DNA of 64,000 nucleotides from Acidimicrobiia bacterium (GTDB lineage Bacteria > Actinomycetota > Acidimicrobiia > Spongiisociales > UBA5794). This document shows positions 44,912 to 50,101 of this stretch, in pieces; positions within the stretch are counted from its first letter, which is position 1; each line of letters starts with the position of its first letter. Below the pieces are notes generated by a model. It had not been told where the DNA came from, searched no databases, and saw only the letters and a program-made list of their open reading frames with translations. Location: positions 1,562 through 65,561 of the forward strand of contig JASJDZ010000003.1 of assembly GCA_030065575.1 (NCBI GenBank), read 5' to 3'. A program made the translations under genes and the position numbers.

Positions 44912-45838
44912 ATGACGCAGAAGGCGCGCAAGACGGTTCAGGCAGACGGTGTCGGCCTGTATCTCGACGAGGTTTCCGAGCACCAGCTCCTCACCGCAGA
45001 AGACGAGGTTCGACTTGCTCGTGCGATGGAAGCTGGCCGTCATGCCGCCGTCCGGCTCGAGACGGAGCGTCTGCCATCACGGGAGCTATTCGAGCTGCGG
45101 CGACTCGTCAATGAAGGTGAGGAAGCCCGCGCCCAATTCATTCGCTCCAATCTTCGGCTGGTTATCTCAATCGCCAAGAAGTACACGGGGCGCGGTCTCG
45201 AGCTGCTCGATCTCGTCCAGGAGGGGAACCTGGGCTTGATCCGGGCCGTCGAGAAGTTCGACTGGCGCAAGGGCTTCAAGTTCTCGACCTATGCGACGTG
45301 GTGGATTCGTCAGGCCATCACCCGGGGCCTCGGGAACACGGCTCGCACCATTCGTCTCCCGGTACACCTCGTCGACGTCGTGCGGGTTGTTCAGGAGACG
45401 AGGAACGCTCTGCACGAGAAGCAGGGACGTCGGCCGACTGCCAGGGAGATTGCCGAGGTGAGCGGCCTCGATCTCGACCAGGTGATTGTCGCTTTGGAAT
45501 GCCCCGACGATTGCGTATCGCTGGACCATCCGGTTGGAGATGCGGGTGACGCAAGTCTGGGCGATTTCGTCGAAGACTCCCAGGCCGACGATCCGTTCGT
45601 GGTGGCTGCCGACATGGCGCGACGGGACGAACTCGACCGAGCCCTGGGGATGCTGGAACCCAAGGAGCGCGACGTCATCGTGCTCCGCTACGGGCTCAGC
45701 GGTGGCGGGCCGCGCACTCTGTCGGACGTCGGGCGGCAGCTGGATGTGACCAGAGAGCGGATCCGTCAGATAGAGCGCAAGGCGCTCACCAAGCTTCGCC
45801 ATCCATCATTCGCCTACGACCTGGAAAGCCTGCTCTAG
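44912..45838 (+). CDS. RNA polymerase sigma-70 factor, RpoD/SigB-like (no region 1.1)
   Basis: LLTAEDE, NLRLVISIAKKY, DLVQEGNLGLIRAVEKFD, KFSTYATWWIRQ, VTRERIRQIE. Confidence 0.96.
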   Translation: MTQKARKTVQADGVGLYLDEVSEHQLLTAEDEVRLARAMEAGRHAAVRLETERLPSRELFELRRLVNEGEEARAQFIRSNLRLVISIAKKYTGRGLELLDLVQEGNLGLIRAVEKFDWRKGFKFSTYATWWIRQAITRGLGNTARTIRLPVHLVDVVRVVQETRNALHEKQGRRPTAREIAEVSGLDLDQVIVALECPDDCVSLDHPVGDAGDASLGDFVEDSQADDPFVVAADMARRDELDRALGMLEPKERDVIVLRYGLSGGGPRTLSDVGRQLDVTRERIRQIERKALTKLRHPSFAYDLESLL

Positions 45839-46644
45839 GCCGCTCCCGCCCAGGGGCATTCGAGCTCATACAGGTAGCGATCCGAAACATGGTTGAGGAC
45901 CCGCCTCGCGGAACGGAATCGACTGGCAACATCGCCGACGACCATCGGGCCTGCTCCTGCATCCAGCGCCGATTCATACCAGCGGGTTCCGAGCGACTCC
46001 AGCGCGTCGAGGCCCGGAGAAATGCTCCCGTGATCAATCAGGCCCAGCACCTCTTCGGGGGTTAGATCAACTGTTGTGCCCAGTTTCTCAGCCTCCAGCG
46101 GAGTGAGCGTCTGTGAGCCCGTCGCATCGGGAAGGATGCCGCTCATGAACAAGCTGAGATCGCCGAGCCGGCACAGCACCGTGGCCCGCTGGCTCGGGAG
46201 GGCATCGTCAACCCACAGCGCCAGTTGGTGGATGTCCATCGGATCAGCGGGAACCAGCGGTTGCGTGGGTAGAGCAAAGGAATCGAGCAGCCGAACCAGG
46301 AAGAAGATCCGGCCCGGGTCTTCAACAAACTCCTGCAGCGGCTCGACATCGAACACCGGGAGACGACTCTGCGGACCGGTCCAGTCGTTGACATATGTCG
46401 CACTGCGGAGCTCGGCCGCAGCAGCGTGCACCATCACGGCAAAGAGAAGGAAGGGCGAGACGAGATTCGCCGGGTGGGCATGGCGTCCCATCACCCCATC
46501 GATAACGTCGGCGTCGGATAACAGGTCGTGAATAGCCCACGGGCGTAGCTGAAGCTCCTCCGCCAACTCGTCGGCATCACCAGCCGTGATTGCCGCCAGA
46601 GTTCGGAGATCTCTCTCACTGAGACCATCCAGGTAGGACGCCAT
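45835..46644 (-). CDS. Conserved hypothetical protein
   Basis: RBS AGGAGA; VSPFLLFAV, LGDLSLFMSG..PD, RF..ARRVLN..SDRYL. Confidence 0.8.
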   Translation of the reverse strand: MASYLDGLSERDLRTLAAITAGDADELAEELQLRPWAIHDLLSDADVIDGVMGRHAHPANLVSPFLLFAVMVHAAAAELRSATYVNDWTGPQSRLPVFDVEPLQEFVEDPGRIFFLVRLLDSFALPTQPLVPADPMDIHQLALWVDDALPSQRATVLCRLGDLSLFMSGILPDATGSQTLTPLEAEKLGTTVDLTPEEVLGLIDHGSISPGLDALESLGTRWYESALDAGAGPMVVGDVASRFRSARRVLNHVSDRYLYELECPWAGAA

Positions 46645-46806
46645 GTCTCTCTCCTGATCCGGCGTACCCAACCTGTCGGCGACGCGGGGCCAGAATTGAG
46701 GATTCGAAGGGTTACTTAGACTGCTGCGGGTTGCGCGTCTGAGCCCGAATACCCAGCCAAGTCACTGAGCTGACACCGCCTGCCGTCGCTGTATCTGAGG
46801 ACGAAC

Positions 46807-47631
46807 ATGTACACACTCAACGACATCATCAGTCGGACCCCCTCGCCTACTCCCTGGAGCGAAGGCGACAACATCCCCTGGGACGATCCCGGGTTCAGCC
46901 GACGCATGCTCGCAGAGCACCTCACCCAGGATCACGACCTGGCCAGCCGGCGTGCGGAGCTCATCGATTCTCACGTCGCAACCATCGTCGCGGCCATCCC
47001 GCCGGCGCCGGGCCGAGTTCTGGATCTGGCGTGCGGACCGGGCCTGTATCTGAACCGCCTGACCAGACTTGGGTATGCGGGACTCGGGATCGACTTCTCC
47101 CCCGCCTCTATCGAGTACGCCCTGGCGCACTCGGGTGAAGCGGAGTATCGACTTGCCGATCTGCGTACAACCGGGTTCGGCTCCGGATTCGATGCTGCGC
47201 TGCTGCTCTACGGACAACTGAACGTGTTTCGCCGCAGCGAGGCCCGCGAGATCCTCGGCAAGGCGCATGATGCGCTGCAACCGGGCGGGACTCTCGTATT
47301 GGAACCGCAGACGGCGGATCACATCCGAGCAGCGGGCCAAGCCGATCCGGGCTGGAGCGCCCACGAGGAGGGCCTGTTCTCGGATCGGCCCCACCTGCTG
47401 CTCACCGAGAGCTTCTGGGACGAACCGGCCCGGACCGCGACTCAGAGGTTCCACGTGGTCGATGCCGAGTCAGGCTCAGTCCAGCGCCACGCCATGTCCA
47501 ACGTTGCGTATACCGAGGCGGAACTGTCCGAGATGCTGGGCCAGCTGGGATTCGTCGAGATGCGGGTCGCGACATCGCTGACCGGTGAACCACGGGACGA
47601 CGGCCTCTTCGCCCTGTTTGCGACTGCCTGA
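46807..47631 (+). CDS. Class I SAM-dependent methyltransferase
   Basis: IPWDDPGFSRRML.EHL, VLDLACGPGLY, GIDFSP, LQPGG. Confidence 0.92.
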   Translation: MYTLNDIISRTPSPTPWSEGDNIPWDDPGFSRRMLAEHLTQDHDLASRRAELIDSHVATIVAAIPPAPGRVLDLACGPGLYLNRLTRLGYAGLGIDFSPASIEYALAHSGEAEYRLADLRTTGFGSGFDAALLLYGQLNVFRRSEAREILGKAHDALQPGGTLVLEPQTADHIRAAGQADPGWSAHEEGLFSDRPHLLLTESFWDEPARTATQRFHVVDAESGSVQRHAMSNVAYTEAELSEMLGQLGFVEMRVATSLTGEPRDDGLFALFATA

Positions 47632-47633
47632 GC

Positions 47634-47843
47634 CGAACTCCCTAGAAGAGCCGCAGCATGGGCGAGATCCACGCCTCAGCTCCGCTGCGCGGACCTGAGG
47701 TTTCGAGTTTGGCGAACTCGTTGAGTTCGTCCCCAAACTCGGCCGATCAGAACAGCTTGAGGAAAGGAGAGTCGATTCCGCGTAGCTCGACGTAGCCTCG
47801 GCTCCGCCGAGGTTCGAGTTCGCCCCCTACGGGCTCGAACTCC
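47634..47843 (-). repeat. Two extra nucS 3'-end copies alternating with hairpin modules
   Basis: 47634-47677 matches 47836-47878 (2 mismatches + 1 indel); 47747-47794 encodes YVELRGIDSPFLKLF*; related CCTC..GAGG and GAGTT..AACTC hairpins lie between the copies. Confidence 0.85.
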
Positions 47844-48503
47844 CTAGAAAAGCCGCAGCATGGGCGAATCAACGCCTCGGAGTTCGTCGTAGTCGATTTC
47901 GATGCAACCGATGTCTCGATCCTCGGCGAGCGTTCGCGCTTGCGGCTTGATTACCTGGGCCACAAACAGTCCCCGGACCGGCGCCAGCCGCTCGTCCCGG
48001 TTGAGGAACTCGAGATAGCGGGTCAACTGCTCTACCCCATCGATCTCGCCACGTCTCTTGACCTCTACGGCAACCACGCGTTCGTCGGCGTCGCGGCAGA
48101 GCAGATCAACCGGGCCAATCGGCGTTGCGTACTCTCGCCGAATCAGTTCGAGGCCCCGCTCGATGAACTCTGGAGTCTCTGCCAGCAGTCGCTGCAGTTC
48201 TAGCTCGACACCGTCCTTCTGCAGGCCGGGGTCCTCCCCCATCTCATAGGAGGTCTCGAAGTGGATCTCGCCAAACGTGATCGTCAGCGTCTCCCCTTTC
48301 GGATTAGCGACGATCCAGCGGCCGTCCTCTTCGATGAGCTGGTTGGGCGCGTTCATCCAGTTGAGGGGCTTGTATGCACCTCCATCGGCGTGCACGGCCA
48401 CACAACCATCTGCCTTGACCATGACCAGCCTGGTGGCCATGGGGAGATGGGCACTGAGCCGCCCGTCGTAGTCAACCGTGCATTCCGCAACAACGATGCG
48501 CAT
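47844..48503 (-). CDS. nucS: Mismatch-specific endonuclease NucS/EndoMS
   Basis: [52 protein letters not shown]. Confidence 0.97.
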
Positions 48504-48697: not shown

Positions 48698-50101
48698 TTA
48701 CCCCACCGATCCTTCCATCTGCAACTCGATGAGACGGTTCAGCTCAACGGCGTATTCCATCGGAAGCTCGCGAACGATCGGCTCGATGAACCCGGCAACG
48801 ATCATCGCCGTTGCCTCCTCTTCGGAGAGCCCGCGACTCATCAGATAGAACAACTGCTCCTCACCGACCTTGGATACCGTGGCCTCGTGTCCGAGATCCA
48901 CATCCGACTCCTCGATCTCCATGTACGGATATGTGTCGGAGCGGGAGTCCTCGTCGAGGATGAGCGCATCGCAACGCACGAACGACTTCGCGTTGTCGGC
49001 CTCGTTCTCGACTCGCACCAGACCCCGGTAGGCGGATCGACCCCCGCCCTTGGAGATTGACTTGGAGGTGATCAGCGAGGACGTATTCGGCGCAGCGTGC
49101 ACCATCTTGGCGCCGGCATCGAGATGTTGTCCTGAGTTGGCAAATGCAATGGACAGCACCTCGCCATGAGCACCTTCTTCCATCAGCCAAACGGCCGGGT
49201 ATTTCATGGTGAGGTTGCTTCCCAGGTTGCCGTCGACCCATTCCATCGTGGCGTTCTTGTAGGCGGCGGCACGCTTGGTGACGAGATTGAACACGTTGTT
49301 CGACCAGTTCTGGATCGTCGTGTAGCGACAGCGGCCGCCTTCCTTGACGATGACCTCGACGACTGCGGAATGCAGAGAGTCGCTGCTGTAGGTGGGCGCA
49401 GAACATCCTTCGACGTAGTGACAGAAGGCCCCTTCGTCGACGATGATCAGCGTTCGCTCGAACTGCCCCATGTTCTCAGCGTTGATTCGGAAGTAAGCCT
49501 GCAGAGGCTCCTCGACGTGTACGCCCGGCGGCACGTATACGAAGCTACCCCCGGACCACACAGCGGAGTTGAGCGCGGCAAACTTGTTGTCGTTCGGCGG
49601 GATGATCGTCCCGAAGTATTCCTTGACCAGGTCGGGGTACTCCCGAACGGCGGTGTCCATGTCGCAGAAGATGACGCCGAGCTGCTCGAGGTCCTCACGG
49701 TTGCGGTGATAGACGACCTCCGACTCGTACTGAGCAGTAACGCCGGCAAGGTACTTGCGCTCAGCTTCCGGGATTCCGAGCTTCTCGTATGTCTCCTTGA
49801 TGGCATCCGGGACCATTTCCCAGTCCTTGGCCTGACCTTCGGTCGGCTTGATGTAGTAGTAGATGTCGTCGAAGTCGATCGTGTCGAGCATCTCTACACC
49901 GCCCCAGTTGGGCATGGGCTTGCGCACAAAGCGCTTGTAGGACTTCAACCGGAAGTCGAGCATCCACTCCGGCTCGTGCTTCATGGCCGACATCTGCCGG
50001 ATGATGTCCTCGTTGAGTCCCTTCTCCGGCTTGAAGACATAGTCTTCTTCGTCGGCCCAGCCGAGCTGGTAGCCGCCGAGATCAATGTCAACAGTTGTCA
50101 T
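48698..50101 (-). CDS. sufB: Fe-S cluster assembly protein SufB
   Basis: [44 protein letters not shown]. Confidence 0.97.

Follow-up and report, generated by a model that had tools for sequence, protein, structure and literature searches.

In the 64,000-nt window analysed here, i.e., the whole stretch taken from contig JASJDZ010000003.1 of an Acidimicrobiia bacterium (assembly GCA_030065575.1), the gene nucS, which encodes the mismatch endonuclease EndoMS/NucS, is followed by two displaced copies of its own 3' end, each preceded by a double-hairpin module. The locus is a real, unusual variant of the repetitive extragenic palindromic (REP) and mycobacterial interspersed repetitive unit (MIRU) kinds of repeats, in which gene 3' ends, here the one encoding the clamp-binding tail of NucS, are stacked and swapped. 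On balance, the interval is best explained as allelic nucS ends that were stacked by unequal or illegitimate recombination between alleles at a double-hairpin repeat resembling REP, bacterial interspersed mosaic elements (BIME) and MIRU, and not as a self-contained transposon. This account draws on the anatomy of the array, a repeat family with covarying structure, parallel stacks behind other genes, three allelic states of nucS and live proteins with swapped tails. Passages of a study on Corynebacterium glutamicum (PMC6159521) describe the C-terminus of NucS as a β-clamp-binding motif, measure the effect of its deletion on the mutation rate, and state that its contact with the clamp raises the activity of the enzyme and is indispensable for keeping mutation rates low.

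The nucS array and its allelic states

Read along the minus strand, end C of nucS is followed by module 1, copy B, module 2 and copy A (Table 1). C and B are identical at 30 of 48 nt. Of their codon changes, nine are synonymous and four non-synonymous, the stop codon differs yet remains a stop, and 12 of the 18 differences fall in third positions (binomial P 0.0039 against one third). Within its initial 17 nt, copy B carries a GAC-to-GTC change that is also found in the displaced copy of a relative, L147 (see below), and its final 31 nt occur as a live end in near relatives. Two direct repeats, of 32 nt (97%) and 11 nt (91%) at spacings of 202 and 201, align copy A with end C and the 8 nt of 3' flank behind it, so that C and A differ by two substitutions and one 1-nt indel; the initial 8 nt of module 1 are thereby also found 3' of copy A. 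The pentamer GAGGC (47673-47677) is common to the 5' start of copy A and the 3' end of module 2. The fold of each module consists of two hairpins, with -28.9 kcal/mol (z -3.7) for module 1 and -40.8 kcal/mol (z -7.2) for module 2, and in either case none of 200 shuffles was as good. Tandem Repeats Finder returned no rows over 47300-48200, because the units of the array are too diverged. Translation of copy B by read-through, bypass or coupling was considered and rejected: B lies 49 nt past the nucS stop in the window's genome and 54 nt past it in L147, where an in-frame TGA is present.

Table 1. Features of the nucS locus (positions in the window; ORF, open reading frame; R1, covariance model of the modules)
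Feature	Position	Strand	Evidence or remark
nucS (EndoMS/NucS mismatch endonuclease), 219 aa	47844..48503	-	ORF; Pfam NucS_N 2e-23, NucS_C 1.2e-38
End C: live final 15 codons and stop of nucS, R-type tail	47844..47891	-	
Module 1: 49-nt double hairpin, GAGTTCG..CGAACTC, GAA, CCTCGG..CCGAGG, C	47795..47843	-	Model R1, 45.2 bits, E 2.5e-9
Copy B: displaced nucS end, YVELRGIDSPFLKLF with stop TGA, K-type tail	47747..47794	-	
Module 2, 74 nt: TCG, GCCGA, long nested hairpin a, GAAA, 12-bp hairpin b, GAGGC end	47673..47746	-	
Copy A: displaced partial nucS end from codon 211, 1-nt insertion, TAG stop, 8 nt of flank	47634..47677	-	Direct repeats D1, D9
10-nt spacer between the stops of copy A and the methyltransferase gene	47632..47641	.	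GGAGTTCGG is similar to the beginning of a module
Class I methyltransferase gene, 274 aa, convergent to nucS	46807..47631	+	ORF; Pfam Methyltransf_25 3e-12; stop codon at 47629-47631
467-aa ORF	48698..50101		Taken for SufB on visual reading of the translation; no family search

The other neighbours of the array are a sigma factor gene and a 278-aa ORF without a Pfam family. The window's own genome (G000) is a metagenome-assembled genome (MAG) of 80 contigs that is 77% complete. Orthologues of nucS were found in 34 of the 41 genomes searched, G000 included. A second tail behind the gene was seen in none of the 29 relatives' nucS loci examined, and among the 41 loci searched with R1, modules beside nucS were found only on two contigs, L146 and L147. 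Comparison by eye with the window region 44912-47631 placed a methyltransferase-like convergent gene behind nucS in five of 11 genus relatives and a sigma-factor gene directly behind it in the other six (loci L010-L020).

L146 is a public metagenome contig with a 100% identical NucS. It carries the whole array with one base different, in module 2, which in this version gives an R1 match of 26.2 bits (E 2.4e-5). L147, with a NucS that is 95% identical and nucS DNA that is 85.2% identical, represents another state: its live end C' (ADSPMLRLF) is followed by a 54-nt module, one displaced copy B', and 18 nt to the stop of the methyltransferase gene. The junction at which GAGGC is followed by TACGTCGAGCT is identical in G000 and L147. 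Across the genus, the consensus tail is MLKLF. This K type is shared by B and B', and the live ends C and C' belong to the R type. B and B' differ at 12 positions, nine of them third positions (P = 0.0039), and stop with TGA and TAG, respectively, as is typical of live genes and not of dead copies. Between copy B and the ends of nucS in genus relatives, identity is 79-84%. To see whether live ends evolve faster or grow richer in AT than displaced ones, their distances from the genus consensus were compared; these were 13 and 8 for C and B, 14 and 10 for C' and B', and 10 and 8 for a similar stack at parB, a contrast too small to support a claim.

Two Logan contigs from other samples show further states. 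X3 (depth 4.8) has a joint of 47648 to 47754 and thus resembles L147. X4 (depth 2.63; 13 differences in 224 nt) reads from the methyltransferase end through A, module 2 and the final 31 nt of B directly into the first 17 nt of C and the body of nucS, with a joint of 47777 to 47875. Since the body of nucS is joined directly to the end of B in X4, the tail of B is the live end in that relative. Stretches that lacked contig cover in runs X2 to X4 were given no weight.

The same combination is found at the protein level. NucS proteins that are 93-96% identical to that of the window have tails ending in MLKLF, MLRLF, LLRLF or FLKLF, and all observed tails retain L-[KR]-L-F. Protein P0005 (93% identical) ends in YDELRGIDSPFLKLF, in which the first residues of C are joined to the distinctive tail of B, IDSPFLKLF. 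A protein 98% identical to P0005 ends in VDSPLLRLF. P0004 and P0005 are identical at 215 of 219 residues, and three of the four differences lie in the final nine. Among seven sequences that are at least 93% identical, pairwise differences per site amount to 0.048 in the body versus 0.169 in the final nine residues. Tail swapping among near-identical alleles is seen, therefore, in called genes. The sequence-only reading of the window had assigned C, the modules, B and A to the positions where all of them lie, and had supposed that copy B was once a functional nucS end and that NucS tails are swapped; the former is supported by P0005 and X4, and the latter is seen between P0004 and P0005.

The module family and gene-end stacks elsewhere

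The modules belong to a dispersed family, not confined to nucS, with the architecture GCCGA, a 7-9-bp hairpin GAGTTY..RAACTC, GAA, a 7-bp hairpin CCTCNCC-GNA-GGNGAGG and a final C. BLAST of parts of the array against G000 gave only short, weak and partial matches, and the family surfaced through structure-aware searches. The pattern AACTCGAACCTCN{9,21}GAGGC had 15 matches in eight of 133 family genomes, versus three for the reversed control pattern. In an alignment of nine 45-nt copies, from which the structure tested was itself derived, 94.4% of the cells are paired, six of 16 pairs are altered on both sides, and the covariation score was reached by none of 500 shuffles; such covarying stems indicate that the hairpins are under selection. 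Covariance model R1 gave 22 matches in G000 at E<=1e-3. With 150 candidates scored per genome, it had matches at E<=0.1 in all 15 genomes of the genus (4 to 49 per genome), and at E<=1e-6 it was found in 12 of the 14 other genus genomes versus eight of 118 genomes of other genera. By a rough ORF call, the majority of copies between genes are at most ~50 nt away from a gene 3' end; both orientations occur, and convergent genes frequently flank them. A search of Rfam 15 over 47300-48100 yielded three weak, unrelated matches (E 0.83-2.5), none of them on the modules. A pattern scan of a wider contig collection returned 22 stretches over many phyla, most of which are expected to be chance matches by a rough estimate made without a computed control.

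The only mobilising enzyme family searched for was the Y1 transposase family PF01797, to which the REP-associated tyrosine transposases (RAYTs) belong. It was absent from all 15 genus genomes (66-98% complete), with six of 14 reference genomes positive as a control. The modules are therefore REP/BIME-like in kind, yet do not qualify as members of a RAYT system. Word searches of the literature on palindromic repeats with duplicated gene ends gave no useful paper.

Stacks of gene ends separated by modules occur at other genes as well. On contig C9 of a related genome (G001), the final 37 nt of a YbjQ-like gene are present in three copies, with 11 nt and a 67-nt module between successive copies, a period of 115 and 99% identity, and the stop of a convergent gene lies 15 nt past the last copy. 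On G005:C5, a 41-nt unit including the final 30 nt of a gene is present three times. The copies at these two sites are identical or differ by 1 nt, and module-bearing tandem arrays with 86-100% identity were found in eight of 15 module clusters fetched. Across the genus, the junction behind the YbjQ-like gene is empty in some genomes, and others have modules, a 72-nt tandem duplication starting inside the gene end, or an altered C-terminus. As separate observations on this gene, a module in G004:C5 (L255) alters its C-terminus (EKAGTQRS before the stop versus EKAR), and the coding tail of its convergent neighbour contains a module-like hairpin in G007:C135 (L257).

In G000, the final 36 nt of 8533 six-frame ORFs were compared with the sequence downstream, which gave 26 recurrences (at least 24 of 36 identities, at most 350 nt downstream) versus one with reversed queries. 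Upon inspection, stacks were recognised at parB (three copies and two double hairpins), a gene on contig C6 (three copies), rplB, and genes on C75 and C73. Synonymous and non-synonymous codon changes between the end copies number six and zero for parB, three and zero for the C6 gene, and four and zero for rplB. The parB stack (C78:36371-36697, L269) consists of three ..(DDLER)IYRLLN ends, each with its stop, and double hairpins of related but different sequence; all differences between the ends are synonymous. In 11 genus relatives, inspected by eye, no second end copy was present in the 300 nt behind parB. The end of rplB is duplicated (33 nt) around an insert of ~56 nt at C32:17258-17511 (L270; further loci L288-L303). 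This rplB-rpsS insert is present in six of 15 genus genomes, and split BLAST matches showed an empty site in the other nine. Each of the six filled genomes has a mini-ORF of 22-32 codons there, extending from the new stop of rplB to the former rpsS start, TAATG. At the C75 locus, the duplicated end begins after an intragenic CCGAGGC. The arrays always contain n modules and n+1 ends, a displaced copy invariably follows the 3' end of a module at a distance of 0 to 1 nt, and the duplicated gene ends range from 10 to 57 nt in length across loci. The sequence-only reading had asked whether other module copies lie beside duplicated gene ends; the modules do form a dispersed family, and copies lie beside such ends at parB, rplB, the YbjQ-like gene and others. 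The transposase of the HUH/REP type that it suggested to look for did not turn up as PF01797; other recombinases and reverse transcriptases were not part of the search.

Some further observations concern the modules and the loci above. Rickettsia palindromic elements are known as in-frame palindromic inserts in genes. Similarly, two modules of G000 are located in frame in Thr-rich linkers of secreted proteins, at C78:8684-8728 (L003/L071) in a secreted protein of 390 aa and at C25:68366-68410 (L004) in a lipoprotein-like protein of 210 aa. They encode ..SLAGPNSNLTEGEA.. and ..SSSTTNSNLAEGEA.., with the shared form ..NSNL(T/A)EGEA, and both stems are kept through compensating changes; this does not bear on the nucS array. 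A degenerate module copy is present at the same place in a paralogue (C25:129615-129658). The region of nucS codons 205-210 itself resembles half a module, as CTACGACGAACTC is common to nucS and the C25 module copy. A second small repeat, a hairpin of G/C runs followed by ACTGACA (GGGGGGACTGACA..), occurs in mosaic clusters with modules (C66:25780-25910, C66:13200-13330 and C14:65000-65110 in G000), and arrays of a third motif (CGTTTTGGCGTA..) are present at C1:176018-176464 and C2:6580-6815. At C57:70824-71148 (L274), a gene end plus, as judged by eye, the 3' half of an opposite-strand tRNA-Leu is repeated 160 nt apart with 33 of 36 identities, which looks like the scar of an integrase-type element and not like a module stack. 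Finally, G001:C103:6680-7417, in the genome of another species, is 100% identical to C32 of G000 over 738 nt of rplB-rpsS, and the G001 copy proper (C43) is 88-91% identical, which suggests that the G001 bin is mixed.

Proposed recombination at the repeat and the alternatives

In the reading preferred here, a nucS allele with a module behind its stop would be joined, at the 3' end of the module (..GAGGC), to another allele upstream of the latter's stop, and the end of this second allele would then persist as a displaced copy. The three-copy array of the window most likely arose by a crossover between two two-copy alleles still present in related populations. One of these, the m1 allele, would consist of an R-type live end, module 1 and a K-type displaced end (nucS-C-m1-B'), as in L147 and X3. 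The other, the m2 allele, would have a K-type live end, made of the 5' part of C and the 3' part of B and ending in IDSPFLKLF, followed by module 2 and displaced copy A, as in X4 and P0005. A crossover near codon 210, inside the K-type copies, would account for the first 17 nt of B with the GTC of the displaced copy and for its live-looking final 31 nt. The m2 allele itself seems to combine a homologous joint with an illegitimate one. The start of copy A falls exactly after GAGGC, and CCGAGGC, followed by GTTGAT in nucS, and CTGAGGC, the end of module 2, share microhomology at six of 7 nt. Hairpin b may stop an exonuclease or a polymerase and so make the 3' end of the module the joint. Deletions between end copies would reverse the stacking. 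Together, stacking and deletions would swap the live clamp-binding tail among MLRLF, LLRLF, MLKLF and FLKLF in a clade that is otherwise 93-98% identical, and a dedicated enzyme may not be needed.

Several points weigh against recombination at the repeat. No junction was caught in the act, and the mechanism is deduced from end products. Microhomology is only 1 nt at three junctions, i.e., between module 1 and B, at G001:C9 and at parB. The junction of GAGGC with TACGTCGAGCT is shared by two lineages whose displaced copies differ like live genes, which would imply two independent events or lateral spread, either of which suits a site-specific process better. C and A are 97% alike though they are located on different alleles in the scheme, so that a recent common source or gene conversion is needed. 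X3 and X4 are single Logan contigs, of the depths given above, from the same study as the probable source sample, and P0004 and P0005 are known as protein sequences alone. The genus genomes are incomplete MAGs, which makes the absence of a transposase weak evidence.

Next in standing, and already unlikely, is a non-autonomous hairpin mini-element, composed of a module and a replacement gene end, that would depend on a site-specific recombinase or single-strand transposase acting in trans and would insert at gene 3' ends with restoration of the frame. The numbers of modules and ends recall tandem integrations at an att site, the displaced copy always follows the module within 0 to 1 nt, and the junction is identical in G000 and L147, despite the live-gene-like differences between B and B'. 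Moreover, the live copies differ from what plain duplication of the displaced ones would give, and the covariation of the stems reflects selection on the hairpins. However, the end carried differs from gene to gene, and each copy would first have to acquire the end of that gene. The start of the duplication also varies, being at codon 205 for one junction in nucS and at codon 211 for the other, and the repeats of the various loci measure 10 to 57 nt. One junction coincides with a microhomology of six of 7 nt, and the 258-nt interval contains no recombinase gene; nor was PF01797, the only family searched for, found in any of the 15 genus genomes. A double-stranded circle of ~100 bp is, on reasoning only, physically unlikely. 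No result shows a unit of ~100 bp that transposes as such, as the sequence-only reading had it; the replacement end is specific to the gene at each locus, and the junctions in nucS are at different codons. The varying junction codons, the microhomology joint, the gene-specific ends and the absence of Y1 together mean that recombination at the repeat fits better than site-specific insertion.

A purely local origin, by slippage or unequal sister exchange that duplicated a gene end with its module, after which the copies drifted without any exchange between lineages, is rather improbable. The module-bearing tandem units at 86-100% identity in eight of the 15 clusters are what such a process would leave, as are the near-identical copies at G001:C9 and G005:C5, and the likeness of C and A agrees with it. 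Drift of dead copies should affect all codon positions, yet third positions account for 12 of 18 differences between C and B and for nine of 12 between B and B', with the stop kept, and parB, the C6 gene and rplB together show 13 synonymous and no non-synonymous codon changes. In addition, modules 1 and 2 differ in architecture, the tail of B is live in P0005, and the arrays end in a gene end, not in a module. One old local duplication with modules unique to the site, which the sequence-only reading had named as an outcome that would overturn it, does not apply, as the modules are not unique.

Equally doubtful is a general cassette system, in which hairpin-bounded units comprising the final 7-19 codons, the stop and a module would be stored behind many genes, among them nucS, parB, rplB and the YbjQ-like gene, and moved in and out of the live position by a putative structure-specific enzyme acting in trans. 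In such a system, the displaced ends would stay under selection and would therefore differ near-exclusively by synonymous changes. If it existed, it would toggle the β-clamp-binding tail of NucS and thereby mismatch repair and homeologous recombination.

Least of all is the array an assembly chimera of two strains with different nucS ends, an artefact that the sequence-only reading had allowed for and that is conceivable in a fragmented, incomplete MAG from samples in which several related strains co-occur, but that is excluded for practical purposes by L146, by L147 with its ordered two-copy version, by the lack of long exact words shared by C and B that could mislead an assembler, and by X2, from Logan contigs of a second sample, which matches 47749-47899 (B, module 1 and C) with zero differences. 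Because L146 and run X1 possibly share the source of the window, the independent confirmation comes from X2 and the relatives.

Relation to known repeats and significance

The REP/BIME and REP-doublet (REPIN) sequences of Gammaproteobacteria are mobilised by the Y1 transposases of the RAYT group. Like these, the modules are short GC-rich palindromes in tens of copies, located between genes at gene 3' ends or between convergent genes and often clustered with other small motifs. In contrast, no Y1_Tnp domain was found in the 15 genus genomes, each unit pairs two unlike hairpins across a GAA linker, duplicated gene ends of 10-57 nt lie on either side of the copies, and the arrays are direct tandem repeats where REPINs are inverted doublets, although inverted pairs were not counted systematically. 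The palindrome-associated transposable elements (PATE) derived from IS200/IS605 insertion sequences have subterminal hairpins, no target duplication and a TnpA (Y1) in the genome; hairpins are present here too, but long flanking repeats and the lack of a PF01797 match set the present case apart.

Integrative elements that target gene 3' ends and bring a replacement end are known at the genes for tRNA and tmRNA and at some protein genes. The nucS array resembles them in the direct repeats of the 3' end (32 and 11 nt) on both sides of the insert, in the n inserts with n+1 ends, and in the gene being left intact. It differs in its small inserts of 49-74 nt, with 158 nt between the repeats, in the variable start of the repeat and in the lack of an integrase among the neighbours, the genome as a whole not having been searched for integrases. 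Homology-facilitated illegitimate recombination has been described for naturally transformable bacteria. It would similarly combine a homologous anchor, here the body of nucS, with an illegitimate GC-rich microhomology joint (CCGAGGC/CTGAGGC), with foreign DNA being added and the resident copy kept. Most junctions here have only 1 nt of microhomology, however.

According to a review (PMC12548453), MIRUs seem to be mobile and integrate at start codons, where the ORF of the unit is kept translationally coupled. The modules share with the MIRU arrays of variable number tandem repeats (MIRU-VNTR) a unit of 40-100 nt, variable tandem arrays and an actinobacterial lineage, and the mini-ORF between rplB and rpsS overlaps the flanking stop and start codons in the manner of a MIRU. 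At nucS, in contrast, the neighbouring gene is convergent, so that coupling is not possible, the frame through the module of L147 contains a TGA, and the module lengths of 49 nt in G000 and 54 nt in L147 place the displaced copy in different frames. Two other candidates were rejected. C, B and A differ by every kind of change and not at adenines alone, unlike the template and variable repeats (TR/VR) of a diversity-generating retroelement, for which no search for a reverse transcriptase was made; and the order of motifs does not fit an integron attC site.

Small palindromic repeats are usually seen as passive occupants of intergenic regions. Here, they are tied to a recurring rearrangement that keeps spare gene ends of coding quality and that swaps the final residues of a protein in natural populations. 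A locus that exchanges the tail of NucS could tune repair, though all tails keep L-[KR]-L-F. The displaced ends form a fossil record, or archive of alleles, that may be used to trace recombination between uncultured lineages. For annotation, they also advise caution, as short ORF-like fragments behind genes are not necessarily products of decay.

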